64,000 nt of DNA, taken from positions 265 through 64,264 of the forward strand of contig CAYPCX010000008.1 of the NCBI GenBank assembly GCA_964409365.1, read 5' to 3'. The notes under the pieces are model-generated. The model did no database searches and had not been told where the DNA came from. It saw only the letters and a list, made by a program, of their open reading frames with translations. Position 1 is the first letter of the stretch, and each line of letters begins with the position of its first letter. This DNA comes from an uncultured Planctomycetia bacterium. Lineage in GTDB: Bacteria > Omnitrophota > Gorgyraeia > Tantalellales > Tantalellaceae. A program made the position numbers and the translations under genes. Of the stretch, positions 3,837-54,000 are shown piece after piece.

Positions 3837-4481
3837 TTACGCCATCCTTATCTCCCGTATCGCTTTAGCGTAGTCTTTTTGCCCGAATACCGCGGTACCC
3901 GCGACAAGCACGTCGGCCCCGGCCTTTATAGCTTTGGGGGCCGTCTCCACGTTTATGCCGCCGTCCACTTCTATCAGCCCCTTGAACCGCGGCCTTATAT
4001 CCCTTACCTTCTCCATCATCTCCTCCATGAAAGCCTGGCCCGCAAAGCCGGGTTCGACCGTCATGACCAGCACCATGTCCACCTGTTCCAGTATCCCGTC
4101 AAGCGCGGAAACATCGGTGCCGGGCTTTATGGAAACCCCGGCCTTTTTGCCTTTTTCCTTGATTTTTTTCACGCTGCCCATCGGGTCCTTACATGCCTCG
4201 ACATGAAAAGTGATAAGGTCGCTCCCCGCCTCGGTGAACTCGTCGACGAACTTCACCGGTTCGTCTATCATAAGGTGCACGTCGAAGAACATACGGCTCA
4301 GCGGCCTTACCGCCTTGATGATAAGGGGGCCTATGGTTATATTAGGGACGAATACCCCGTCCATGACGTCCACGTGAAGCCAGTCGGCTCCCGCCCGCTC
4401 AACGGACTTTATCTCTTCCGCCAATTTGCTGAAATCCGCCGATAAGATGCTCGGCGCCACCAAAACCTTCTTTTCACTCAT
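3837..4481 (-). CDS. rpe: Ribulose-phosphate 3-epimerase
   Basis: The 214-aa ORF reads MSEKKVLVAPSILSADFSKL...LHVDVMDGVFVPNITIGP...VDGGIN, a typical Rpe TIM-barrel signature. An AAGGGAG RBS precedes the ATG. Confidence 0.9.
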   Translation of the reverse strand: MSEKKVLVAPSILSADFSKLAEEIKSVERAGADWLHVDVMDGVFVPNITIGPLIIKAVRPLSRMFFDVHLMIDEPVKFVDEFTEAGSDLITFHVEACKDPMGSVKKIKEKGKKAGVSIKPGTDVSALDGILEQVDMVLVMTVEPGFAGQAFMEEMMEKVRDIRPRFKGLIEVDGGINVETAPKAIKAGADVLVAGTAVFGQKDYAKAIREIRMA

Positions 4482-4532: not shown

Positions 4533-5609
4533 TCACCTCTCGCTCATCATCATGTATACACGGTTGATATCGTCCAGGGTCACCACCCCTATTATCTCGC
4601 CCTTCCTTTTGACCGGCATCGCGTGGGTGCCGTATTTCTGCATGAGCTTCTGCACCTGGTCGAGCCGGGTCGAGACGTCCACCGCTGGAAAGTTCCTTCT
4701 CATTATGTCCCTGACGATCGCTTCCTTGCCTCTTTCGTGCACCCCGTACACGACCTCCCTGCGGGTGATGAAACCTACCATGTGCCCGTCCTCATCCATC
4801 ACCGGGTAGTCCTCCTGATGGGTATGGAATATAAGTTCCAGCACTTTCGACAGCTGCGCGTCCGGGCTTATATGGATAAAGTTGCGGGCCAGTATGTCGC
4901 GGATCGAATACCTTTTCAGGATCTCCCGCACCTCTACCTGCAGGCCCTCACTCGAAGCGGCCATGTATATGAACGCCGCGATCAGTAAAAGGAATATATG
5001 CCCGTACACTATCCCCACGTACGCGAAAAGAAGCGCGAATATGTGGCCCAGACGGACGGCTATCGCCGTGGCCTCCCTGTAGCTAATGCGGTACGACAGT
5101 ATCGCGCGCAGGACCCTGCCCCCGTCCATGGGGAAAGCGGGTATCATGTTGAACACCGCGAGCACGAGGTTTATCCAGTATATTTGCGCGAGCACGCTGA
5201 AATCGCCGGTGAACTTGGCCTGGCCGGTCAGTACCAGGAACGGATATATAAGCTTTTCCTTCCCGATAAGAAAATAGAGCGGGAAATACAGGACCAATAG
5301 AACCAGCACGTTAGACAACGGCCCCGCTATGGAGATGACGAGCTCCTGGAGCGGCTTGGTCGGGATCTCCGGCATCTGGGCCACTCCGCCGATCGGCAAA
5401 AGCGTTATCCGTTTCACTTTGATACCGAAATACGCGGCTGCCAGGCTGTGGCAGAGCTCATGGACCGTCACGAAAAAGAACACCCCGATTATAAGGACAA
5501 GTCCCTTAAGCCCCATGAGCAGGAAGAAAAAAAGCAAAAGCAGGAGAAAGGTGAAGTGAATATCGATATATATCCCGAACACCCTTGTCAGATGAAAAGT
5601 GCCCCTCAT
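4533..5609 (-). CDS. Site-2 protease family (M50) zinc metalloprotease with C-terminal CBS domain pair
   Basis: The N-terminus is polytopic and hydrophobic with HELCHSL (HExxH). The C-terminal half has two CBS-like repeats ([19 protein letters not shown] / [19 protein letters not shown]). ATGA overlap with the upstream M16 gene. Confidence 0.8.
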
Positions 5610-6877
5610 ACCTTGCCAAGCTCCTTCGTTATCCTGCTTTTGTCCCCGGGGGCGATGTTACCTATAACGGCCAGGTTCAGGTACCCGGGCCGGAAAATCC
5701 TCTCCGCGACCTTTTTGATATCCCCGGCCGTGACCTGATCCAGCATTTTCACGACGTACTTTACCTCGGGTATCTCCTTATGCACCATAAGCCGGTCCCC
5801 CAGCCACACCATCCTGGAAGAGGTGCCCTCCATGGCCAGGAGGAATTGCCCCTTGGCGTACTCCCTCGCCCGTTTCAACTCACCCCGGGTGACGCCTTTG
5901 TCCTTCAGCAATCTCAGCTGGTTGAGTACGGCTATGACCGACTTCATCGCGTTACTCGTATCTACCCCCGCGTGCACCACGACGTCGCCGACGTCGCTGT
6001 GCCGTTTGTACATCGAAGAGATATCGTAACACAGCCCCCGTTTTTCCCTAAGCTCATCGAAAAGCCTCGATGACATGTTCCCGCCGAGTATCACGTTCAT
6101 GAGCTTCATCGCGAAGCGCTCGTGAAGGTTCCTGTCAGGGGCGTGAAAACCCATCGCTATATGCGTCTGCTTTGTGTCTCCCCGGTGGAACGTGGTCTTC
6201 GGCCCTTTCTGGGATATCTTCGGTGTCTTGAAAGAACGGCTCTTTCCTTTCTTGACGCCGGCGAACTTGCGCGAGGTGGAAATGAAGAATTTTTCCGGGT
6301 CGACCTTGCCCGCGGCGACGACCGCTATGTTGCCTGGATAGTAACGCTCTTCCTTGAACTTGATTATATCGTTCCTGCTGAAACCCTTTACCGTGGTCAT
6401 GCTCCCGGTCAAGGGCCTCCCGAGGGGATCACCCGGCCACATGATCTGGCCCAGAAGCTCCATCACGTGCTCGGCGGGCTGGTCGCGGTACATCTTTATC
6501 TCCTCGCATATCACGAATTTTTCCCGCGAGATCTCCGCTTCGTCGAACTTCGGGTTAAGCACCATATCGCCCAGTATCTCCATCCCGAGCTCCATGTATT
6601 TGGACGGGACTTTAACCATGTAACAGGTCACCTCGTCCGCCGTGAAACCGTTAAAGGAGCCGCCCACGCCCTCGATCGACTGTTTGAGGTCCATCGCGTC
6701 GCGGCTGAGCGTCCCCTTAAAGAGCATGTGTTCGATAAGATGGCTTATTCCGCTCTGCTTCGCGGCTTCATAACGCCCTCCAACGCCTATCCACACCCCC
6801 AGGGACACTGACGACATCCCCGGCATGGTAGAGACGACCATTTTCAACCCGTTCTTCGTGCTTTTTTTCTTATACAA
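5606..6877 (-). CDS. M16 family (pitrilysin/insulinase-like) zinc peptidase
   Basis: The 423-aa ORF has the inverted zinc motif [11 protein letters not shown] (HxxEH) and an M16-like N-terminus, [29 protein letters not shown]. The apparent start is TTG (revcomp of caa at 6875-6877). An in-frame ATG at about 6841 would cut off conserved N-terminal residues. Confidence 0.8.
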
Positions 6878-10056: not shown

Positions 10057-10836
10057 TTATTCCCTCATCAATTCCCTGACCTTGTCCCCGATATTCTCCG
10101 CCCTCATGAACGTCTCGCCTATCAGGACGGCGTTCACCCCCAGGCTCTTCAGGAACATCACCTGTTCGTAGCTTTCTATGCCGCTCTCCGAGACTATCAC
10201 CTTCGTCTCGGGTATCAGCCGGATAAGCCGCTGCGTCGTGGATATATCCACGTCAAAATTCGTAAGGTCCCTGTTGTTGATCCCTATGATGGACGCGGGC
10301 GAGGCAAGCGCCTTCTCTATATCCTCCTCGTTGTTCACCTCTACCATAACGTCGATACCGAGTTCCTTGGCGATACCATGGTAACGACCAAGCTCATCCT
10401 GCGTGAGGATGTGCGCTATCAGGAGTATCGCGTCGGCCCCGTGCGCCCCCGCCTCGTATATCTGGTACTCATCTATTATGAAATCCTTCCTCAGAACGGG
10501 CAGCGTCACCCTTTCCTTCACTATGTCCAGGTACTCGAGTTTGCCGTCGAAGAACCGCTCGTCGGTAAGCACGCTTATGGCGCCGGCGCCCGCCGCCTGG
10601 TAAGCCAGGGCTATCCTGGCCGGGTCGAACTCCCCGGGACGTATCACTCCCCTGGAAGGAGACCTTCTTTTTATCTCCGCTATGAGATTTATATGGCCTT
10701 TGCGGGAAATGTTCCTTTTGAACGCGCTCCTGATGGCCTGGGCTTCCGCCTTCTGTTTGAGCTCGTTCAAAGGGGCTTCCCTGCGGGCCTGTTCGACCTC
10801 GCGCTTTTTTTCCTCCACTATTTTTCCCAATATCAC
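10057..10836 (-). CDS. trpC: Indole-3-glycerol phosphate synthase
   Basis: MILGKIVEEKKREVEQ...INLIAEIKRRSPSRG...LIGETFMRAENIGDKVREL. 259 aa. ATGA overlap with the trpD stop. Confidence 0.9.
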   Translation of the reverse strand: MILGKIVEEKKREVEQARREAPLNELKQKAEAQAIRSAFKRNISRKGHINLIAEIKRRSPSRGVIRPGEFDPARIALAYQAAGAGAISVLTDERFFDGKLEYLDIVKERVTLPVLRKDFIIDEYQIYEAGAHGADAILLIAHILTQDELGRYHGIAKELGIDVMVEVNNEEDIEKALASPASIIGINNRDLTNFDVDISTTQRLIRLIPETKVIVSESGIESYEQVMFLKSLGVNAVLIGETFMRAENIGDKVRELMRE

Positions 10837-11867
10837 TTGTTTTTTCCCTTCCCTTTCGTGATCCTGATCAACTGGTCGAGCTTTCGCATGGCGCTGCCGG
10901 AATCGATCGACCGCGCCGCCAGCCTCACGCCTTCTTTAAAGCCGCGCGCCTTACCCGCGGCAACAAGGGCGACAGCCGAATTCATCAGCACGACATCCCG
11001 TTTCGCCCCTTTCCTGCCGGAAAGGACCCCGCGGACCATAGCGGCGTTCCCCCTGACCGTGCCTCCCTTTATGGCCTTCAGTGAGGCCTTTTTCACACCG
11101 AACGTCGCGGGAGAGACGTTGTAGGTAGTGACCCTTCCTCCCTTGAGCTCGCTGATCCTGGTCTTGCCGACCACCGAGACCTCATCAAGCGGGCCGTCGC
11201 CGTGCACCACGAACGCGCGTCTGGATCCCAGTCTTTTGAGGACCCTGGCCAGTATTTCCGTCAGTCCCGGGTCATATACGCCCAGCACCTGGTACTTAGC
11301 CGACGCCGGGTTGCACAAGGGGCCCAGGATATTGAATATCGTCCTTATGCCTATCTCCCTGCGCGGACCGATGGCGTAACGCATCGCCCCGTGATAAAGC
11401 GGCGCGAAAAGGAACCCTATCCCTACTTTGTTGACGCATCTCTCGGTCGCTTTCACGGGCGTATCAAGTTTCACGCCGAGCTCCTCAAGCACGTCGGCGC
11501 TCCCGCAATGGCTGGAGACGCCCCTGTTGCCGTGCTTTGCCACCTTGACCCCGCAGCCGGCCACGACAAAAGCCGCGGTCGTGGAAACGTTGAAAACCTT
11601 CGTCCCGGTACCGCCCGTCCCGCAGGTATCAAGAACGGAGGCCGACCTGCCGGATACCTTTATCTTCGCGGCCTTTTCACGCATGACCTTCGCGGCACCC
11701 GTTATCTCGTCCACCGTCTCCCCCTTCATACGCAGGGCGGTTATGAAAGCCCCTATCTGAGAAGGGGCGGCTTTTCCGCCCATTATCTCGTTAAAAACGG
11801 AACGGGTCTCGTTCTCGGTAAGGTCTTCAAACCCGACTACTTTACTGATCGCTTTCTTTATTTTCAT
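10833..11867 (-). CDS. trpD: Anthranilate phosphoribosyltransferase
   Basis: DTCGTGGTGTKVFNVSTTAAFVVAGCGVKVAKHGNR, the glycine-rich PRPP-binding signature. 344 aa. Confidence 0.9.
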   Translation of the reverse strand: MKIKKAISKVVGFEDLTENETRSVFNEIMGGKAAPSQIGAFITALRMKGETVDEITGAAKVMREKAAKIKVSGRSASVLDTCGTGGTGTKVFNVSTTAAFVVAGCGVKVAKHGNRGVSSHCGSADVLEELGVKLDTPVKATERCVNKVGIGFLFAPLYHGAMRYAIGPRREIGIRTIFNILGPLCNPASAKYQVLGVYDPGLTEILARVLKRLGSRRAFVVHGDGPLDEVSVVGKTRISELKGGRVTTYNVSPATFGVKKASLKAIKGGTVRGNAAMVRGVLSGRKGAKRDVVLMNSAVALVAAGKARGFKEGVRLAARSIDSGSAMRKLDQLIRITKGKGKNK

Positions 11868-16506: not shown

Positions 16507-16857
16507 CTACTTTAGTGATCGCTTTAAACCGCTTAACATTTTCGATATTTCAACCAACGTATCTTTAAAGTCATTAAATTTAGACTCACATATATATTGT
16601 TGATTAAAAGAAACCTCAAGAATCGCTGCACACTCAAAAACAGAACCTCTTGCTATGTCGAGAAAACGTTTAAATTCTTTACTTGCTCTTGACGATCCCT
16701 CAGCGATGTTTAGCAAAATAGACACAGCGGCTCTTCTCAACTGCTGCGTCAGGCCAAACAATTCCTCTTTTGGAAAATCCCTGGTTAGCAAATAAATATT
16801 ATCTACTAAATCGCTTGTTTTCCTATATATGTCTAATTTTTCAAAAGTGAACTTCAT
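16507..16857 (-). CDS. Four-helix-bundle protein of the 23S rRNA intervening-sequence protein family (TIGR02436-like, Avd-like fold), inserted between hisH and hisB
   Basis: MKFTFEKLDIYRKTSDLVDNIYLLTRDFPKEELFGLTQQLRRAAVSILLNIAEGSSR...FLDIARGSVFECAAILEV, the characteristic family motifs. It is markedly AT-rich (about 37% GC versus about 57% for neighbours). The start was chosen at ATG 16857. The ORF track begins 4 codons upstream at a TTG. Confidence 0.75.
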   Translation of the reverse strand: MKFTFEKLDIYRKTSDLVDNIYLLTRDFPKEELFGLTQQLRRAAVSILLNIAEGSSRASKEFKRFLDIARGSVFECAAILEVSFNQQYICESKFNDFKDTLVEISKMLSGLKRSLK

Positions 16858-16869
16858 TTCCCAACCCAA

Positions 16870-33000: not shown

Positions 33001-36000
33001 GGTATCTCCCGGCCTTTTTTATTCTTCAGCGCGGTTATCCCGGAAAACTTTCCGGCTATCTTTTTGATCTTCGCCATCCTGTGCAGATACCATCCCCAAT
33101 AGATGAATAAGCCGAAAACAGCGGTCAGCACACTCCCCACTCCCCACACGGGATTCATGTTCAGGTAAACACCGCTATCAGACCTTTGTTTTGGCATACC
33201 CAGCGTGATCTTGCCCGAAAGGGCGCCTTCCTCATCCAGATACCGGTATTCCGGCGAAACCCGTTCTTTCCAGAATTCCTGGGCCGGTTCATCTTCGATC
33301 TTCACCTCATAATTTTTAACGCCTCTGGTCCGAAGATGATCTTCCACGCTCTCGACCAAAAAGGCGCCCAGCTGATCGCTTCCGTGAAGAAGCTCTGCAT
33401 ACAGACCATCCACGATAGCTTCATTTTCTTCTGTTCCCGCCGAGCTTGCGGAAAAGACCGAATAACGCAGGAAACCGACAGGTTTACCACCGGCAAGGGC
33501 GACAAAAAATCCGTTATCATCGGCATCAGGCTCCGCTCTTTCCATCCAATCGATATAATTCCTGCCGTTTTGCGCGACTCCTTCACTCATAAGGAATGCG
33601 GCGAATCCTTCCCTTTCCTCCTCGCTCAAACGGCTCGAATGTATAACCCGAGCGGTGTATTCCTGTCCCGATATATCTCTAAGCACACGCTTCCTATCCC
33701 GGATGGGCAGCGCGGTAGTGCCGTCTTCGTCCCGCGGCGCTCTTCTCCCGGGCATGAACGCGAAGCACAAAAGCGTATAGAGAACACCCAATAGCCCGGC
33801 CCCCGCCAGCACCTTTGCTAACACGTCGCTTGTCCCGATCAAGGATACACCCCCCGGGAACGGCAATATCGCGCCCAGGACTATCCCTGCCGCAACGGCC
33901 ACGGCAACCCACTTCATATCGAGCCCGGCGCCCCAGAAACGATTCATGCCCAGATAGAACCCGCCAGTATCCTCCTGCGCAACATTGGGACCTGATCCAT
34001 CTCTGACTTCTTCTATTTGCGCAACGTGCTTTTCAACAAGGGCTTCCATGGCTGCTTGCAATTCAAGCGTCCTTTTGTCAAGTATAAGCTTGTGCCCTCC
34101 CCGGTTCAGGATATATTCATCATCACGGCACTCCGTGCGCAGGTCCCGCTTTAAGAACTCTTCCAGTCCTTTGTTCTGTAAAAACCCGGTGAATTCATCA
34201 TAGAACTGCTCATAGATATCTGAAAGTGCTTCTTCTTTTGCGCTCTTTTTCCCCGTTTTAAGGTAAGCGAGCAAAGAGGTATGCAGAAGGTGAGTCATCC
34301 TCAAAGCCCCGCGGTGGCCTGACCTGTCAGACAGGACATTCCCCAGACCATATTCCGTTAGTTCGTCAAACGTTTCTTTTACCCCTTTAACGACATCCCA
34401 CGGGACCACATCCTTCTTTTGCCTGTACGCATATTGGTTCTTTTTCTCATTGAGCCGTTTATCGGATGCGGTCAGGAACCCTTCCGCCAGTGTTATCAAA
34501 TTCACGCCTTCTTCAAAAGCTTCCTTGGCCTCTTCCCTTCGGAATATGCCGGGTCTTGCCACGTTTATATGCAGGGGAAGCACTATATCGGCCCCTGTCG
34601 GAATTATCCCCAGGTCCTGCATGGTGTCTATCATCTCCGCCACGTCTTTCCAGTCCCTTGCCGGTTGCGGCGAAATTTCGAGTATCACCCGGTCCTCCAT
34701 GAACTCATGCTTGTCATCAGTCTCTATGTCGAGCAGCTTCATCAATGCCTTCGTGGCTTTCACGGGATACCCTTCGACCGAACGCTCGATCTCTATCTCA
34801 CAACCTATGGTCGGGAAATCCTCCAGGGCCTTTTCTCTTTCCAGGCACTCACTTATTCTTCCCCTCAAACACTCAACGACCTCTTCCGGCTCGGCGCGTT
34901 CTTTCCAGAGCATATGATAAGCTTTCAGTTTCAGGTTCGCGCCCGCGCCCCTTGATATCCCCATAAGGCCCTGATGTATATCGGCATCATCCAGCACGTC
35001 TTCAAATAACGCATGTAAAGCGGACCTGCCACCCGCCTCATACCCCTCTTCGGTGAAGACTTCCTCGACCGTCTGCATAAAGTCGGTCACCACGAACTTC
35101 TCATAAGCTTCATCCACGGTCATCTTCCTGCCGAAGAACGTGGAGAGAACGGTCATCCATATAAGGCGCAGCTTCCAGGAGAAGGCGGACCATGATCCTG
35201 AATTATACAGGCGTTCTATCTCATACAGTTCGAGGGCTTTCTCTTTATGGAAGTCCCAGGTGCGTTTCCCCCTTCCGGGGCCCCTTATGGCGGCCATGAT
35301 CCCGATAAAGCCCGGCTTCCTTTCCGAAAGGACTTCCCTGATATACTCACGTGTCTCGTCCCGTCCGGCTTCGTCCACGGGTAAGGGTCTGGGTCCGAAC
35401 ACCGCCATCTCGCCCTTGAACAGGTTGATGATCTGCGGGAATTCGTCGAGCCCACGGTCTCTCAGGAATTCGCCGTATTTCCTCACTTTCCCGTCACTGT
35501 CCATTGTCCTCAGCTTATAGCACCTGAACACCTTACCCTTGTGTCCGTACCTTTCCTGGACGAAGAAGAAGCCCTTCAACGTATCGATAGACTCGCGTAT
35601 GAACGCCAGAATCGAGAGAATAAGCGACTCCAGCGCCGCCTTAAGCGCATCAAGCCATAAGAAAGGCCGTTTTTCTTCAGGTGAATCCAGTGATTTCACG
35701 CCAAATTTCATGTTGTCTTTTCCGCGATAATCACGTCCTTCTTCCGATATGAACTTTTTCCAAAGATTCTGGGCGGCACCATTGCTTTCTACCCCGACGA
35801 AATACTCCCTCACTCCACGGCCCCTGAGATAATCTTCCAGACATTCGACCACAAACGTCCCTAAACCTTTCTCGCGATGTTCAAGTGCTACATATAAACT
35901 GTGGACGTGGGCCTCACTCGGGGAAAAGACCAGATACTTGATAATACCTGCCGGTTCTCCGTCGACCAACGCGATAAAGAATCCCTCACTGTCACTGACC

Positions 36001-39000
36001 CAGTCAAGGGACTTTCTCGCGATCTTCCGGGCGTTTTCTATATCCCCCTTGAAGATCACCTGGGACACCTTTTTCTCCTCCGCCATGAAATCAGCGACTT
36101 TATCTTTCTCTTCCGGCGTTAACTCGGTCGTGTGGGCCACGCGGGCCGTACACCTTTCCCCCGTCTTAGAAACAAGGACTCGCGTCCATTCCAGAACGGG
36201 CGCTTCGCCTTCCCTCGCTTCTTCTAACTCCAACGCGGGTTCGGACCCCTGTTTTTTAGAGCTGAGGGCAAGCCAGACCGACGCGCTGGTAAAAGCGGCG
36301 GCAAGAAAATACTGCCAGTAGAACGGCTCACAACCATAGAGGCAGGAAAACATGACCGCCAGGACGGGAAACAGCCCTATAACGGGAAAATACCGCGTAA
36401 GGTGGTAATCCTTGATGCTGAGTATCTTGGTATAGACCAGCCAGTTAGTAATATAGGCGACGGCGAAAAGCGGGAATGCCCAATGCAGGAAAAAAGTTCC
36501 ATGGGTCAAAAGAACCCCTATATCCGGCGCTAAAACAGTCTTCAATACAGGAGGCAGGAAACCGCCCGCGAGGGATAAAGATACCAGCGAGGTGAGGCTT
36601 CCCCAGCAGATCGCCCCCATTATATACATGGTCTGGGTTATCGCGGCGGGAAGATTCCGTAAAAGAGCCCTTTTCGTACTTTCTTCCATTTCCTGATCAT
36701 CGTGTACGCTATTGAACAGCTTCTTGATCAGGATGTTCCTCACGGCGTTGACCATAGAAGCCGCCACGACCAGTATGATGCCCGTAGCGCTCAAAGCGAG
36801 ATCTTTATCGGCTATATAAGTAAGCCACCAGATGCCCGCGATAATGCCGAAATTACCGGCAACTTTGCGTGAGGTGATCTTCTCGCCCAGGAACAGGGCG
36901 GCCAGGACCATCACGCCGATATGAGTGAGCTGTATCAGCACGGCGAAAGCGCCCGCCGAAATGAAGAGCAGCGAATAATTGCAGAGCATGGCGGCGGCGA
37001 ACTGGATCAGTATCCCGATAGTGACCATCTGGAGCCGCTGGGGCCAGCTGAGGGTCTTCCAGACCATCCTGAGCGAACCAAAGGGATCGAATATCTTTTT
37101 CGACTGCGGCTCGTCCTGGGAAAGATCGGGTGATCTATCATCTTCCAGGCGATAAAGGCCGGATGCCATAAGCATGCTGCCCAGGATAACGAAGCCGAAC
37201 GAGAAACCGATGGCCCAGGGGAAATACGAAGTGGTAAGGGCCAGCGGCTTACAGGTCCCTATCATGCCCTTAAGCAGGGGCAACACCGCCGCCACGACCG
37301 TTATGATGATAAATCCCATGGTGCGGGGATGGCCCACGAACCAGTCGCCGAGACGGTTCAAAAGAGGCGCCTCAAGACGGCGTTCGCCCGGAGTCGTGAC
37401 CTTTTTGAGCTTGAATTCACGCATGAGATACCTCGTCGCATCCAGGCACCTGCGGCCTGTCGCGACACTGACGGGCACCATCGGGCTCAGGGGATCATAC
37501 TCGTTCACACTGAGACCGAAACGCCTGTTCACCATGGAATAATCGTTGCCTCCCCTGTTCGCTTTATCCCCGACTGTCGCTATACGTCCTTCAGGAATAC
37601 CGAACCTTTCCCGCACAAAATCCACGGCATTCATCTTTTGAATATCCGCCTGGTCTATATCGATCGTTGAATGCGTCTCGACGACGTTCAGGTCGATACT
37701 GACCTTTGTTTCCAGATCCTCTCTGACAATAGCGCCCGCTTTCGCGACCTCTTCAGGATCCATATTTAGCGATATCCCGCCCCGCTTATGTTCGACCAGT
37801 GTGACCTCCGGAAAATCTTCAAAGCCGGTGAAATGCTTCGCAACTTCCTTCTGGACACCATGATCGAATTTGACATCGACACGGGACACTTCTTCTCTCT
37901 CCGGGTAAGATCCCGGATAACCGTTAACGGCGAAGCAGCCGTTCTCCGGCACGGCCCATAAAAGGCCGAGCGCGCTTTCGTCTATGCCACGTTCCTGTAG
38001 CCTCGCGCGTATTTTTTTGAACACGTCGTCCTCTATATCATTAATGCCGTTCTCTCTTAACTTGCCGGCATCGTTATTCTCGCTCAGGTTAAGCATCCGG
38101 CCGCTCGCCATCACGATCAATTTGCCTTCGCTTATACGGTCAACGATCCAGTCGATCACATCTTCCGGCATGTCACCGTTATCATCCGTCAAGACCCTGT
38201 CGATATCAAAAATAACGGCTTCATATTCTCTCGCGAGCGCTATTTTCAGCCGTATAAATGCCGCGACCTTTTCCGTGTACACGAACTGTGCCAGGTATGC
38301 CAAAGCGCCCCAGAGGTTCCTTCCCAGCCAGTTCTCTGATAAGAATCCGGGTATCGCAAATTCGAACCTTTCGTGGTTGGCGTATAAGGCTTGCAATAAA
38401 AGCGGTCGTCCTTTGAGTTCAGCTTTGTTGGCGTAGAGCGTGCCGTTCTCTACGTAGGTAAGGCGCTTTTCACTTTTCGGCGGGGCTTCAGCTTTTTCGA
38501 AGAAAGAAAGCAGATCCTCTTCCTCCGGCCCGGCCCTCAAAAGCCCCAGCTTAACGAACAGGGAATTTAAGGGGTGAACGACCAGCCAGTCTAGAAGTTC
38601 GGTAACAATTCCTTTTGTGTAGTAGAGGTCCGATGTCTGATAAAGGTAAGCAAGCGCGAACAAAGTCGGTATGTTCAAAAGAAGCACCCCACCCGTCCCG
38701 CACAGGCCCGCAAAACCGGCTACAAGTGACACCGCCAGCGGGACCGTAAATACACCCGCGGCTCCCCACGCACCCTGCCAGGAGACGGGCTGTATCCCGC
38801 GCTTCTTTTCGAAAGTTGTTTTCCAAAAAAGTATCGTTTTCCTCTCCTTGCCCACAAATTTCGCGTACTTCAGATTACACAAAGACTTTAACGTGTCCAT
38901 AAAAGCTTCCCACCTGAAAGATCCCAGGGATTTCACCACGCCTTCATACAACTCCTCTACGTCCAACTTTTTATTCATCATTCCGGGGTTTGCCTCGAAA

Positions 39001-42000: not shown

Positions 42001-45000
42001 TCCGTTCTCCTTTTGTCCTCTCCGGTAACGGCTTCTTTCGCGAAAGCTACGTCCAGTCTTTCGTTCAATCCCGGTATTTCTCCGGCACTTCCGGTAAACT
42101 CCAGGACCGCCACCTGCGGCAATGCGCTGCTCACCAATTCCCTCTCCTGTGGCCTGTCATCAACAAAAACAAAGGCGTTCAATCCGATATCTAATGCCTG
42201 GGCTATTTCCTGTAAATTCGTCGCCTTGTCCTGCCAGTTAGCCTTGATCACGGCGAAGTCATCTTTTTCCAATACCATGCCGGGAAGACTTTCCAGAGCT
42301 TTCTCAACGTCTTTGAGTTCGTTCTTGCTGCTTATCGCCAGGATCACACCCCTCTCCTTCAGTTCCTTCACTTTTCTCTGAAGGTCCGCGTGCGGGGCGG
42401 TCACTTCGATACCGGTGAGACCGTCCTCACCCACGACCCCTTTCCAGAGCACCCCGTCGCAGTCCAGAACAAGGCATTTCTTGAGCGCGTTCGCGTCGTA
42501 TGCCCTGATCACATGGAGAATATCGCCTCTTATTGCCCCGATACGCGGCAGGTCCAGGCGGGTAGCTTTCCCGTCTTCAAAGAGCTTCTTCAGTTCTGCG
42601 AAAGCCGAGAGAACATTCGATGTTTTTCCGCACTCCATATTGTCGTCGTCGCGCCATGACCAATTAGCCCTGCCGGCGATAGCCGACAAATGGACCAGAT
42701 CATCGCGGACGATCATCCCGGCCGCGAACATCTCCTGCATTATTTCGAACGTGCCGTTAACCTCCCCCCACTCATAATCATATCCGTAACCGCCATGGCT
42801 CCACTGTAATGCCGCATCTCCTATACGGATCAACCCGGGCACATCAGCCGCCTCTACATGACCCTCGCGTAACAACTCTCCGGTTATGACGGAAGCTTCC
42901 CGTGTCAACTTCTCTTTCACTTTTTGCAGCGCGTTCTCTGCCTCTTGCCGTTTGTCGGCCTCTTCGGCTCTGGCGGCTTCTCCAAGAAATTCGTCAAAAG
43001 TGCCGATCTGTCGCACTAACACCTCAGGAGCTGTACAGCTTATGTCGATATAGTAAATATCGAAATAGCGCGCGCAGGTATTTATTTTATAAGCCGCCTG
43101 CTCTTCTAAAGCGGCATCCGGGTGTTCCTCTTCCCACGCAGAGATCTTCGCGTGCGCTTCGTCTACATCGCTGCCTTCTTTTAGCCTGTACAAAAGGCCG
43201 CGCCCTTTCTCGTTGAGGATAATATCCGAGGCGACATATCCCGATGCTTTCGACCGCTTCATGACCAGGATATCCCTGGAACTGATACGTAATCCCATCA
43301 AGCCGCCGGGATGGGCGTGGAATGACGTAGCCATTTTCCCCCGCATTTCCGGATGATCCAAAAATTCCGACAGACAGCCTAATCTGTGCAAATTCCCTTC
43401 GTCGTCAAAAATGACGGATCTTGTGCTGCCGCGGGATACTCTCCATCCTTCATCCTCGTCCATATGTATGTATCCCGATGCTTCGAGTTGGCATATATCC
43501 GTTTCACTGCTTTCCGCCTGCGGCGACAGTTCTGTCAACGACAGGCCCGTCCGCTCTTTAGTGAAGAATTCTTTCAAGGTTAACTTTTCTATGCCACACC
43601 TTACGGTGGTATCTTCCAGCCTATACGCACCACCGGCGCCGGGTTTCTCTTCCGAGCGGACTCTGTGTTGCCTTCCCTTGAACTTTAAATATGGGCTTCC
43701 TTCCTCAGGATACTTCAACACCCCTACCGGCGCGTTCTTCTCTGAACCGACAAAGAATTCTATAATGTCACCGGGATTCAGGTAAGCACCCGTAGCAAGC
43801 GTCTCTAACAACGGATCTCTTATCTCTTCCAGCATCCCTTTCAAATTTTTCATATATAAAGCTGAAGATATCCCGCCCGAGAAAACCGTTTCATCTTCGA
43901 TCCCGCCCCCGTCCAGCCGCTTGTTGTCTTTCTGTTCGAGATCCTCCACACCCGTTCTATTTCCGGCTTTATCTATGCGCCATACCCCTTCGGGCCTGAT
44001 CTCGTAAAGGTGGCCGTACTTGAAGACCTGCTCTTTGTCATCCCATACATAAGGCGGAACTACCGAGTAGATCCTTTCTCCCTTGTCTCTCTCTTTCTGT
44101 AGTTCACGTGTGAATGTTTCGCGAATGCGGTTTATATCTTTACCCTGGCCATGATAATCAGGCATTAAAATATCTACATCCGTCTCTTTGGCCTCCGATG
44201 CTCCCTCCATGATATATGGGGCGCGATATTGCCGTTCCCTCCCGATCACCGACGAACCGATCAGATAGACCGGCGGGACCCTTGAAGGCGGGATCCCCTC
44301 TTTCTTTACGTTTTCGGCGGTAGTTACCATCATCCCGTGCAGGGTAAGCAATAAAGACCTGTTCGCCTCTTTCGGCTTTGATACATCCCGAGACGGTTTC
44401 AGTGCTGACAATACGTCCCGGAATAATTCGACCAGTAATGACAATATACCGAGGAACGATGATTCCGGAACTTGCGCATTGTGGGTCAACGCCCCTTCCG
44501 CTAAGACGTCCTGTCTTTCTTCTCCGATATCGCCTGCCTTATCCTTTATGAAGTTAATGAACGGCCACGGATCATTCCTTTTAAAACTGAGAGCACTGTA
44601 TTTGCCGTACCATTCGTCCTTGTAACCGACCTCCGGCAGGCCTTCACGGGCGCGGATCCTGTTCATGATCTCCCAACCCGTCCTGTGGTTGGCATCCTCG
44701 AACGGATGCAAAGTAAAAAAGGCCAGGTGAGCCGCCGCCGCGAAGTTGGCCGGCTCTTCCAGTTGGACCCCTCTTTGATTGAAAAGTTCTACCATGCCGG
44801 CAAAGAAGCCGAATTGACGCGCCTTCGCGCGTTGTTCCGGAGCGCTGTTGATCCAGTCGACAAACTCCCGTCTCAAAATAGCCATTATTTCCACACCTTC
44901 GATAAGCATCCACCTTATACTATCCCCCGCGAAAAACGGGAATATTGTCCAGGTCCGGTACATCGCAACGGGCCTGTCCCTCAAGCCGGGAAGCCCCTCA

Positions 45001-51000: not shown

Positions 51001-54000
51001 AGTCCGGCCACGGCAATAATAAGAACCCCTAAAATGACCACTGAAACAAGAACCGGTGTGAGCGCCGCCCCTTGCGCCCTGTTGTAGGAAACGGGCTGGA
51101 CCTCGACCAGTTCTTTATCTCTTTTCCCTTTCTGGTAGGTCACACCGATATGCCTTTGAGCTTCCCCGACCACATCATATCCGGGCTGGAACGCCCTCAG
51201 ATGCGGGCTTACCTTAAGAGCATCAAATACACTCAGGATCTCATCAGTGGTGGCGTTTAACATGGACGCAAGTACCCGGACGAGCGACTTGCGGTAATCT
51301 AACCCATTATCACGGATGGCACCCACAACCCTTCTTGCCAACTCTTGTCTGGGCGGAGGAAATTCTGCTAACGCGTTCTCGATAGCCCCTTCAACAGCTT
51401 CTTTGAACTCATTTTCCATAGCCGCTATCGGCGGTGATTCCGGCCTTTTGCTTGAAACCACCATACTGTATATTCCCCTCTCAGCTTCAATTTTGTGCGG
51501 GTAAACAGGAATGATCCCCGGCCACAACCGGACTACTTGGGCAGCCTTTTCCATTATGTTCAAGGGAACCTGGTAATCGCCTTTTTCCCAGTGGGACAGC
51601 GCGTTCTGTGAAACATGCTCACCATCTTCACTTAATCTTTCCGCAAATTCCGCATGGCTTAATTCCAGGCTCTTACGGAGCATCTTCAACCTCTCCCCCG
51701 CTTTGTCACGATACAGGCCTGCCACCATTTGCATGACACGCGGAGAAATCGAACGTATGCCGCGTTCCCAGCTGCATATTGTGATCTTCGGTATGATCTT
51801 TTCCGGATCCAGCTGTTCACCGAATTCCGCCAGATACAAGCCCAGCGCCATCCTGAACGCCCTCATCATTTTTCGTGACTGGTCCCGGTAGGTCATCTCT
51901 GTTTTATCCATGATCTCTAATGGGATCATATTCTTGCCGGTCTCCCAGCTGCTGACCGTTGTCGCAGGCACGGGGCTTTTTTCATTCAACAATTTCCCGA
52001 ACTCGTCCTGACTTAAGCCGAGCGCTTCGCGTAACACCCGCATCCTTTGCCCCGCTTCTACCCGGTAAACTTTTTCCGCGCTTTCCATGACCTCGAAAGG
52101 AATCTCAGTCATACCCTGTTCCATCCCCCCGACTTTGGGCACATCCATATAGCCTTCCTTGCTCAGCCGTTCTTCAAACTCTTCCTGAGATAACTTCAAC
52201 TTTTTACGGATCGTTTTCAATCTTTTCCCCGCCCGGCCACGGTAAAGCTTTTCCGCTTTCTCCATCATATCGAAAGGAACCGGGCTCTCACCCTTCTCCA
52301 GAGCCTTGATCTTTCTGTGATGCACCGGATACTTTTCATTCAGCAGCATCCAGAATTCTTCCTGAGTCATCCCTAACCCCACACGGAACCCTTTTAACCT
52401 TTTTCTCCCGCGTTCAAGATAGAATCTCTCCGCATCCTTCATGCGCTTGGAAGGAACGGTATATTCCCCGCGTTCCCATATGCCGAGGGTCCTCGGATGT
52501 ATGGGGTTTTTCTTGTCCAGTTCTTCTCCAAATTCTTCCCTGGTCAACCCAAGTTTTTCACGGAATTCCCTTAATCTTTTTCCCGCAAGGCCTGGGTAGA
52601 TCCTTTCCACGTTTTCCATCACTTCGAGCGGAACCGGGCAATTACCCTGCTCCCATAGCGACACCATGTCCAGAGATACATCTCTTTTGTCATCTAACAG
52701 TTTGCCTAATTCCCCCTGGCTCAACCCCAACATCAGCCGGATATCCCTTAATCTATTTCCTGCATGACCGCGATAGACTTTTTCCGCTTCCGTCATTATG
52801 TGTAAAGGAACACGGTTTTTGCCGTTTATCCACTGGCTGAATGTGCCGCCATAAACAGGATCTTTATCGCCCAATAACTTTGCAAATTGACCCTGATTTA
52901 AACCCGACCTTACCTGCAATATCTTTAGCCTTTTTCCCGCGCGATCGCGGTAAAACTTCTCTACCGCTTTCATGACAGCGAAAGGAATACTTCTTACACC
53001 GCTTTCCCATTTGATAACGGCGCCTACACGTACTGGCTTTCCGATATCCAGCTGCTTTGCAAATTCTTTCTGAGTCAAACCCAGGCTTTCCCGGAACGAG
53101 CTCAGCCTTTTCCCTGCCCGACCGCGGTAGAGCTTTTTCGCATCGTCCATCACGTCAAAGGGGATCTCGCTTTCACCGTTTTCCCAATCTCCTATCTTCC
53201 CCGGACCTATGGGATCTTTTTCGTCCAGCTGTTCCCCGAATTCTCTCCGGGTCAAACCCAGGCTTTCCCGGAACGTCCTCAGCCTTTTCCCGGCCCGATC
53301 ATGGTAGAGCTTTTGCGCGACTTCCATAATATGTAGAGGGACCGGATGCGTACCGTTCATCCATTTATAGAACGTACTCGGGTGTACAGGATCATTCTTG
53401 CGCAGCAGTTCCCGGAATTCTTCCACGGCTAAATCCAGTCTTTTCCGGATCGCCTGCAGTCTTTTGCCGGCAGTTTTCCCGGGAGATTCCTCTACTTCGC
53501 GCTGTGCCTGGAACATCACCCGGTCCAACAGTTCTTGGTCTTTCTTTGGGTCGGGACTTGCAACGAAATCCCCGCCCCGGCCAAATTCACGGGCTTCTTG
53601 TATTTTTGACCTGGTTTCTCTGGCTTTCTTTTGAGATTCATCCGAAGTCGTTCCCGTTTCTGGTGTAAGCGTGGCCCCTTGTGTCTTGCTCCTACCCCGA
53701 CTGACTGGCCTCTCAAAACGAAATATCGGTGTATCTTTCGGCCTCCTGGCGACAACATGGAGCCATCCGGCTTCCAGCGACTTCGTTCCATTTTTCTTCT
53801 CTTCTTTGATCTTTTCATCCAGAGACGAAAGCAGTATCTTCTGCAGGAACTTTTGCTGCTTCTTATCATCCAGTTTGCCCCAGATAAAAACGGTCACGTA
53901 GGGGTCGGAATAGAAATCTCTCATATCATCAAGGGGTATGCGAACCTTTTTCTTTTCAACCTCAATATCGGTAAAACCCGCCTGCCGGAGGGCTTCTCTA

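Follow-up and report, generated by a model that had tools for sequence, protein, structure and literature searches.

Introduction

Giant proteins of Omnitrophota are patchworks of enzyme domains with many transmembrane (TM) helices, in which GNAT, HAD and methyltransferase domains are frequent (bioRxiv 10.1101/2023.11.21.568195; bioRxiv 10.64898/2026.06.07.730766), and open reading frames (ORFs) of more than 10,000 amino acids (aa) are well documented in Omnitrophota, including in long-read complete genomes. Nielsen & Lui (2026) named their class 1 of such proteins 'multi-enzyme metabolic clusters' (bioRxiv 10.64898/2026.06.07.730766), and the traits given for 'Archaeovorin' are a SecA_DEAD-like domain, GT1/GT5, HEAT or TPR, and NUDIX (West-Roberts et al. 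2023, bioRxiv 10.1101/2023.11.21.568195). Giant Omnitrophota proteins are a recognised puzzle, of which we present here a concrete, testable piece: a region of a 64,000-nt stretch of contig CAYPCX010000008.1 (the whole stretch is called the window below) in which a giant ORF encodes, one after the other, a HAD phosphatase, a DMT/EamA-like membrane block, a GNAT acetyltransferase and a Bac_transf sugar transferase. On balance, we favour the view that these are four intact but autonomous modules, and that the transferase still moves a phosphosugar to a lipid phosphate.

The transferase resembles the monotopic phosphoglycosyl transferases (monoPGTs). The re-entrant membrane helix, the hallmark of these enzymes, is a long hydrophobic helix that carries a Lys-Arg dyad and is broken by a Ser/branched-residue-Pro motif (PMC6133551). 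In PglC, Arg88 and Arg145 bind undecaprenyl phosphate (PMC10519829), and small PGTs specific for UDP-diNAcBac have a mobile loop with GLLP and a C-terminal aromatic box (PMC10942596). Bifunctional PGTs (BiPGTs) with fused acetyltransferases or glycosyltransferases are an established class (PMC10942596, PMC11626204). The main texts of West-Roberts et al. 2023 and Nielsen & Lui 2026 mention neither Bac_transf nor EamA nor phosphoglycosyl transferases.

Results

Four domains in a single giant reading frame

The giant ORF (positions 24039-63941, minus strand) was identified from the ORF list and its translation. It runs for 39.9 kb as one uninterrupted frame that opens with ATG, comprises 13,300 codons and has only one stop. 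Positions 35330-38250 of the window, to which the initial annotation had assigned the four modules, correspond to about aa 8564-9538 of the 13,300-aa protein. We scanned both sub-segments and the whole 13,300 aa against Pfam, applying gathering cut-offs. Matches were obtained to Hydrolase_3 of the HAD families (E-value 4e-9; 36.9 bits against a cut-off of 20.9), to EamA (E-value 2e-8; 34.9 bits against 28.2; first half-repeat only), to Acetyltransf_1 (PF00583; E-value 1e-14; 54.8 bits against 20.7) and to Bac_transf (PF02397; E-value 2e-25; 89.8 bits against 27), the last covering profile positions 4-177 of 179. Four such matches in the single frame of a 39.9-kb ORF cannot be chance. Hence, both the domains and their order, as proposed in the initial annotation, are borne out by four Pfam matches above cut-off, including the match to PF02397 on which that proposal depended. 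The proposed extent needs correction: the modules do lie there, but the transferase runs to about nt 35070 (aa 9624), some 260 nt past the lower boundary. None of the four modules reaches the cut-off of a model in NCBIfam; because no equivalog cut-off is reached, specific substrates cannot be named.

A phosphoglycosyl transferase core of the giant-protein type

The catalytic module of the transferase (positions 35070-35666, minus strand; aa 9426-9624; Pfam PF02397) matches PglC and WbaP in a PDB sequence search (E-values of about 1e-11; 8e-12 for PglC). An AlphaFold model of the transferase is of moderate quality (predicted local distance difference test score, pLDDT, 73). In a Foldseek search of the PDB, only PglC and WbaP were significant, with a probability of 1.00 and template modelling scores of 0.45-0.55 (for PglC, an E-value of 8e-9 and scores of 0.46-0.55). 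HMMER alignment to PglC and WbaP places the equivalent of the PglC catalytic dyad at Asp9499-Glu9500 (GLDEFPQ; positions 35442-35447, minus strand). The dyad columns are invariant in one alignment (A1) and invariant or nearly so in another (A2), and the window transferase conforms in all columns where the other sequences do not vary, 12 in A1 and 34 in A2. The K-x-R-T-M and G-P-R-P motifs are also kept. The sugar-transferase signature named in the initial annotation is present, with GPRP as predicted, but it reads KLRTM...GPRP rather than KFRTM...GPRP. By alignment only, the equivalents of PglC Arg88 and Arg145 are likewise retained, as an Arg five residues before the dyad (FLRDRGLDE) and in the GR that follows the PG motif (GPGRGKR).

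Two features set this core apart from the canonical one. In all 17 long proteins compared, namely the window protein and 16 others, PG-(F/L/I)-x-x-x replaces the canonical PG-(I/L)-T-G, and in 15 of these 17 the distance from K-x-R-T-M to the dyad is only 16-22 residues. This short spacing indicates that the mobile loop, which bears the diNAcBac signature in PglC, has been deleted; GLLP is not present in the KLRTM-LDE loop of the window transferase. We conclude from these alignments that the transferase is a member of a distinct clade of monoPGT cores typical of giant proteins.

A degenerate re-entrant helix

The region that corresponds to the re-entrant helix (KRPFLWLDALKAALESLILSILAFIRESIDTLKG; positions 35571-35672, minus strand; aa 9424-9457) was characterised by alignments and by statistics over 155 homologues, and is degenerate. 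Its Lys-Arg dyad is kept (K9424-R9425, in EEKRPFLW) and aligns with the KR column of the homologues. However, there is no proline in aa 9424-9457, where 145 of the 155 homologues have one, and the second half of the region is polar. Runs free of charged or strongly polar residues reach at most 10 aa, where the homologues have a median of 22, and hydropathy over 19 residues is 1.78, against a median of 2.62. In the AlphaFold model the region forms a single, unbroken, straight helix of 37 residues (model residues 7-43). We conclude that the transferase has, as far as sequence and model can predict, lost the proline-kinked hydrophobic re-entrant helix of monotopic PGTs.

The nearest relative of the domain, P0040, has 61% identity over the core and a helix region that is even less hydrophobic, whereas the next relative, P0045, has kept a canonical re-entrant helix. 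P0040 is a complete protein of 4,924 aa encoded on a 31-kb contig (L084; Logan SRR22388187), and carries Bac_transf, MTS, Pkinase and HATPase_c domains. Its gene is followed immediately by a second one of 4,659 aa (HTH_8, DnaJ, GNAT), and pgsA- and pgpA-like phospholipid genes lie upstream. Separately, four proteins of about 350-537 aa (P0025, P0032, P0039 and P0038) combine a Bac_transf core with non-hydrophobic sequence in place of the re-entrant-helix region; helix-less PGT-like cores thus occur outside giant proteins as well.

A ten-segment membrane block with predicted cytoplasmic ends

The DMT/EamA-like block (positions 36243-37355, minus strand; aa 8863-9233) was delimited by the EamA match on its first repeat and by hydropathy, and its hydropathy profile has ten hydrophobic segments. 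The EamA end-of-repeat signature LFLGEKITSRKVAGNFGIIAGI ends the first five segments and an echo of it, LYGCEPFYWQYFLAAAF, ends the second five, although the internal 5+5 repeat was undetected by BLAST or Smith-Waterman comparison. The block aligns end to end (MAFFT) with a canonical EamA protein of 312 aa (P0188; pairwise E-value 2e-7). Its best affinities are to metabolite exporters. A word-indexed protein search with the block returned almost nothing and no close homologue besides a single relative, the contig L001 described below; a PDB sequence search with it gave nothing useful.

In the ten-helix model, 20 Lys/Arg residues fall in loops on the N-terminal side and only 3 in loops on the opposite side. 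By the positive-inside rule, the block fits a 10-helix DMT with both termini in the cytoplasm. Such a topology would place the HAD, GNAT and transferase modules in the compartment of sugar phosphates, acetyl-CoA and nucleoside diphosphate (NDP)-sugars, as a phosphoglycosyl transferase and an enzyme that uses acetyl-CoA both require. The cytoplasm-facing transferase envisaged in the initial annotation is what hydropathy and the Lys/Arg count predict. Hydrophobic hairpins or clusters are not confined to this block; by hydropathy, they are distributed over the whole 13,300-aa chain.

The HAD and GNAT modules

The HAD-IIB (Cof-like) phosphatase module (positions 37356-38252, minus strand; aa 8564-8862) matches both Hydrolase_3 and S6PP above the Pfam cut-off. 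It carries D8579-I-D8581-R-V (motif I), ASGR, a conserved Lys (in QKMNA) and GDKANRGGND. An alignment with 12 homologous HAD domains, drawn from 11 other and mostly long proteins, shows that these motifs are conserved. Against the NCBIfam HAD-IIB/Cof models the module stays below cut-off (32 against 41.8), and a PDB sequence search with it returned nothing useful. The subtype is coherent: a KL..AL...Y.A helix precedes the motif-I DxDxT, after which come ENG and then GD-x5-6-ND...GGF(C/S)V.EY. Proteins with this HAD subtype (P0042-P0051, P0060, P0081, P0095 and P0137) are mostly 1,400-6,300 aa long, and one of them, P0042, has it as a tandem duplicate.

The GNAT module (positions 35667-36242, minus strand; aa 9234-9425; Pfam Acetyltransf_1) has an intact acetyl-CoA loop, R-E-K-G-L-G at aa 9356-9361, with the pattern (Q/R)-x-x-G-x-(G/A). 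NCBIfam and a PDB sequence search gave weak similarity to RimI or small-molecule acetyltransferases, and in neither was an affinity to sugar-nucleotide acetyltransferases detected. A second GNAT (positions 33183-33707, minus strand; aa 10079-10253), found by self-BLAST and Pfam directly after a TM hairpin, sits 830 residues downstream of the first. The two are paralogues, with 36% identity over 190 aa (self-BLAST E-value 2e-24). Both are directly preceded by a TM segment.

GNAT and transferase form a separable indel

Only one close relative of the region was found, a 4.4-kb JGI contig (L001; proteins P0001 and P0041) with about 80% aa identity. As judged by blastn and a six-frame reading, L001 matches the window over the pre-HAD region, the HAD module, the DMT block and the sequence after the transferase. 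The GNAT and transferase modules coincide with an in-frame indel (positions 35069-36241, minus strand) of 1173 nt, that is 391 codons, in place of which L001 has 36 nt. L001 has, in addition, 345 extra nt (115 residues) between HAD and DMT. In the parts common to both sequences, the ratio of nonsynonymous to synonymous substitution rates (dN/dS) is 0.17-0.34, with values of 0.17 for HAD and 0.21-0.23 for the membrane block; the HAD module, the DMT block and their flanks are under purifying selection. We conclude that GNAT and transferase are a separable two-domain indel.

A foreign origin of the GNAT-transferase segment is unsupported, since its GC content (0.51-0.53) equals the gene mean (0.51). 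We also rejected the idea that L001 is a pseudogene: it has a +1 frameshift in an A7 run, but dN/dS downstream of this is 0.21, and the frameshift is probably an error. The last 54 nt of L001 (positions 4367-4420) repeat, in inverted orientation and at 91% identity, a piece of the contig's DMT region (window positions 36414-36467), and this copy is probably an assembly artefact of the contig end.

An exhaustive HMMER search covered 1.8 billion representatives, from which the 150 best-scoring proteins were listed; the four-domain order occurs in no other protein among these 150. Scans with the cassette of genome contigs and metagenome contigs gave no match, and a word-indexed protein search with the whole cassette found almost nothing. 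By contrast, single subtypes occur without the other modules: at least 16 other proteins, 1,157-7,365 aa long, have the PGT subtype in mid-chain, and at least eight others, about 1,400-6,300 aa long, have the HAD subtype. When some 1,000 residues surrounding the transferase were scanned with Pfam in ten other giant proteins, its neighbours proved to be methyltransferases, RidA and FkbO_N, an S8 peptidase, a GlnD-type nucleotidyltransferase, RamC_N and an inositol monophosphatase. A GNAT lies near the PGT in one of the ten (P0049, about 350 aa upstream of the PGT), and the nearest PGT relatives, P0040 and P0045, have none. We conclude that, on this comparative evidence, the four modules appear to be loosely associated rather than a conserved glycan-making unit.

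Genomic context and other parts of the giant protein

Downstream of the giant ORF and on the same strand lie pncC, thpR, recA, alaS, hisDBHAF, trpEGDCFBA, two genes for M16-type peptidases, a glmM-like gene and lepA. Since housekeeping genes (recA, alaS, and the his and trp operons) adjoin the giant ORF, the window is a piece of a bacterial chromosome. The best genome matches of its AlaS are metagenome-assembled genomes of Candidatus Omnitrophota, at 70-74% identity, and an identical alaS gene is present on contigs of 50-200 kb, including ENA and JGI assemblies.

Beyond the four modules, the giant protein has Pfam domains of the methyltransferase, Fic, arginase-like and NTP_transf_2 types, the second GNAT and 11 helix-turn-helix (HTH) repeats. 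No match was found in the 13,300 aa to Pfam SecA_DEAD, C39 or S8 peptidase, HEAT, TPR, GT1/GT5, NUDIX or dockerin, nor to PF13727. The HTH repeats (positions 51528-53474, minus strand; aa 3490-4138) are eleven tandem 59-residue units of the XRE type in perfect register (Pfam HTH_31/HTH_3, E-value 5e-49). They share 30-50% pairwise identity, and a tandem-repeat finder detected no nucleotide-level repeat in the DNA of the array. A DNA-binding HTH array is an odd component of a membrane-anchored giant protein. The Fic/DOC match (E-value 2e-6) is at about 44650-44800 on the minus strand (aa ~6380-6430), weak arginase-family matches are at aa ~4995-5077 and 10312-10426, and the NTP_transf_2 match is at aa ~11068-11152.

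Between hisB and hisH, at a local dip in G+C, lies an ORF of 120 aa (positions 16507-16869, minus strand). The corresponding gene on a JGI contig copy matches 23S_rRNA_IVP / bAvd, a family of four-helix bundles to which accessory proteins of diversity-generating retroelements belong. The minus strand carries all credible genes of the window, and GC skew stays negative throughout, reaching a cumulative -5.3 over 64 kb, consistent with a single replichore with strong co-orientation. The sole local departure in skew, at 36-38 kb (GC skew -0.06, AT skew +0.05), coincides with the hydrophobic DMT block.

Discussion

Four autonomous modules or one pathway

The reading towards which we lean is that the four modules are intact and autonomous parts of a membrane-stitched giant, whose transferase is still able to move a phosphosugar to a lipid phosphate. 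Numerous helical hairpins would fasten the giant protein to the inner membrane, while its enzyme domains would lie in the cytoplasm. At the membrane's cytoplasmic side, the transferase would pass a sugar-1-phosphate from an NDP-sugar to a phosphate-bearing lipid. We infer that this activity is retained because the Asp-Glu dyad, K-x-R-T-M, G-P-R-P and the Arg88/Arg145 equivalents are all kept. Since its own membrane helix has degenerated, the transferase is probably held at the membrane by the DMT block, which lies about 190 residues upstream. The HAD, GNAT and DMT modules would be independent neighbours and not obligate steps of a single pathway.

Several points weigh against this reading. A transferase that lacks the proline kink may not reach polyprenyl phosphate at all, and the giant protein may be cleaved into pieces. 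The predicted topology derives from hydropathy and the positive-inside rule only; the second DMT repeat has no Pfam match, and an AlphaFold model of the membrane block, built from a 4-row alignment, is unusable (pLDDT 40). The comparison with relatives depends on one close relative, itself a 4.4-kb fragment, so that the indel may be a gain or a loss. Finally, non-conservation does not prove that functional coupling is absent in the host organism.

A more specific version, which we put forward only tentatively, is that the window protein represents a polytopically tethered monoPGT: within the clade of giant-protein cores, the window protein and P0040 would have shed the re-entrant helix, and the window's transferase would be held in place by the fused 10-helix DMT. 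The DMT could then also present or remove the substrate or product of the transferase. If this is true, the enzyme would initiate an as yet unknown glycan or glycolipid in a bacterium that lives as an episymbiont or predator.

It is doubtful, although by no means far-fetched, that the modules instead work as an integrated unit. The initial annotation had proposed a self-contained glycoconjugate unit in a single polypeptide. Such a unit would amount to a super-sized bifunctional PGT, in which HAD and GNAT modify a sugar precursor before the transferase attaches it to polyprenyl phosphate, and the DMT translocates the substrate or the lipid-linked product. There is a precedent in bifunctional monoPGTs (PMC10942596, PMC11626204). 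The adjacency of four intact modules stands as proposed, and their predicted cytoplasmic side is shared. GNAT and PGT also move as a single indel, and P0049 similarly has a GNAT upstream of its PGT. However, none of the 150 best-scoring proteins listed out of 1.8 billion representatives has this combination again, L001 retains HAD and DMT under purifying selection while having neither GNAT nor PGT, and elsewhere the neighbours of the PGT are unrelated enzymes. The affinities of the parts also point away from a shared pathway: the best matches of the DMT block are metabolite exporters, and the GNAT, which has a paralogue in the same protein, resembles RimI or small-molecule acetyltransferases rather than those of the PseH/WecD type. 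The acetyltransferases known to be fused in bifunctional PGTs are left-handed beta-helix enzymes and not GNATs, which further counts against an integrated unit, as does the absence of the re-entrant-helix proline.

We consider it unlikely that the transferase has been repurposed. In that case its phosphosugar would go not to membrane-buried polyprenyl phosphate but to some other acceptor with a phosphate or hydroxyl group, located on the membrane surface or away from it; a soluble metabolite, a protein or the head group of a surface lipid would be examples. Consistent with a change of this sort, the window domain and P0040 both combine a non-hydrophobic helix region with a well conserved catalytic core, the modelled 37-residue helix is straight, a further helix-less PGT-like group exists (P0025, P0032, P0039), and mutation of the Ser-Pro motif perturbs the topology of PglC (PMC6133551). 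Nevertheless, the equivalents of the two Arg residues that bind undecaprenyl phosphate are retained, as is the N-terminal Lys-Arg dyad, the helix retains moderate hydrophobicity (1.78 over 19 residues), and the domain sits right behind a 10-helix membrane block. We know of no alternative acceptor for the monoPGT superfamily, which also argues against repurposing.

We give still less credence to the idea that the GNAT-PGT segment is a decaying or inactive remnant, dispensable and already lost in L001, whose helix is eroding. Its absence from the closest relative, the degenerate re-entrant helix and the non-canonical PG-x-T-G and W-Q motifs would all be expected of such a remnant. However, the 391 codons contain no stop or frameshift, the acetyl-CoA loop of the GNAT is intact, all invariant columns of both transferase alignments are kept, and the core is 61% identical to that of P0040, an otherwise unrelated protein. 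Moreover, the non-canonical motifs are a trait of the clade and not a sign of decay, because the whole giant-protein clade has them.

A chimeric join of metagenomic reads, creating the GNAT-PGT segment or the whole giant ORF, is highly improbable even though the sequence is metagenome-derived and L001 itself has an inverted 54-nt end copy and a homopolymer frameshift, since the insertion is exactly in frame and matches the gene in GC content, the inserted GNAT has a paralogue elsewhere in this ORF, contigs with the identical neighbouring alaS were assembled independently in ENA and JGI data sets, and Omnitrophota ORFs of this size are well documented, long-read genomes included.

If the transferase is active, it would indicate that these uncultured episymbionts make a polyprenyl-linked glycan. 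Since the re-entrant helix positions the active site of monoPGTs and shapes the lipid-phosphate site, a kink-less core behind a polytopic domain is a probe of whether that helix is necessary. The 391-codon indel and the scattered occurrence of the PGT and HAD subtypes support the idea that giant genes evolve by shuffling autonomous modules, and warn that adjacent domains in giant genes should not be read as pathways.

Comparison with known systems

The giant-protein class, all four domain families and PGT fusions are already known. A giant-protein monoPGT clade, loss of the proline kink in one lineage and placement of the core behind a DMT appear to be undescribed in the literature examined.

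The giant ORF fits the Omnitrophota class of giant multi-enzyme, membrane-stitched proteins: it shares with these an Omnitrophota host, a length of more than 10,000 aa, TM helices along the chain, many small-molecule enzyme domains (GNAT, HAD, methyltransferase) and a near-unique sequence. Within this class, it fits the 'multi-enzyme' proteins of Nielsen & Lui better than 'Archaeovorin'.

Among its modules, the HAD shares DxDx(T/V), (S/T)GR, the conserved Lys and the GD...ND motif IV with the HAD-IIB/Cof-type sugar-phosphate phosphatases (PF08282, TIGR01484, TIGR00099). Cof-type enzymes have a compact GD-x-x-ND motif IV, whereas that of the window HAD is widened, with six or seven residues between GD and ND. 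It also differs in remaining below the NCBIfam subfamily cut-offs and in belonging to a subtype found mostly in long proteins. The membrane block resembles EamA-type 10-TM DMTs (PF00892) in its ten hydrophobic segments, its predicted topology with both N and C termini inside, the LFLGE-x-(I/L)-x3-(K/Q)-x2-G end of repeat 1 and the echo LYGCEPFYWQYFLAAA that ends repeat 2. Unlike these transporters, it lies inside a giant protein, has a charged insert of 39 residues between helices 2 and 3, and has a second repeat that is undetectable by Pfam.

For the transferase, the best match among solved structures, by sequence and by fold, is the small monoPGT PglC of Campylobacter (PDB 8g1n, 8e37, 5W7L family). 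The two share the Asp-Glu dyad, K-x-R-T-M, G-P-R-P, the N-terminal Lys-Arg dyad and the Arg88/Arg145 equivalents. At about 27% identity, they differ in that the window transferase has PG-F-I-G-I instead of PG-I-T-G-L, lacks the Ser/Ile-Pro kink, and has the GLLP-carrying loop deleted, leaving 17 residues between KLRTM and LDE.

With BiPGTs, such as acetyltransferase-PGT fusions of the Neisseria PglB type, the window protein shares the direct fusion of an acetyltransferase to a monoPGT core, both facing the cytoplasm (a prediction in the case of the window). The window pair differs in several respects: its GNAT shows no detectable affinity to sugar-nucleotide enzymes, the nearest relative of the gene lacks the fusion, the re-entrant helix of its transferase is degenerate, and the pair is embedded in the interior of a 13,300-aa chain, after a 10-helix DMT block. 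The large monoPGTs WbaP and WcaJ likewise have a polytopic membrane domain ahead of the monoPGT core in one chain, and the window transferase matches WbaP in sequence and fold. In the window protein, however, a 10-helix DMT/EamA block takes the place of the 4-helix bundle, and a GNAT sits where PF13727 would be.

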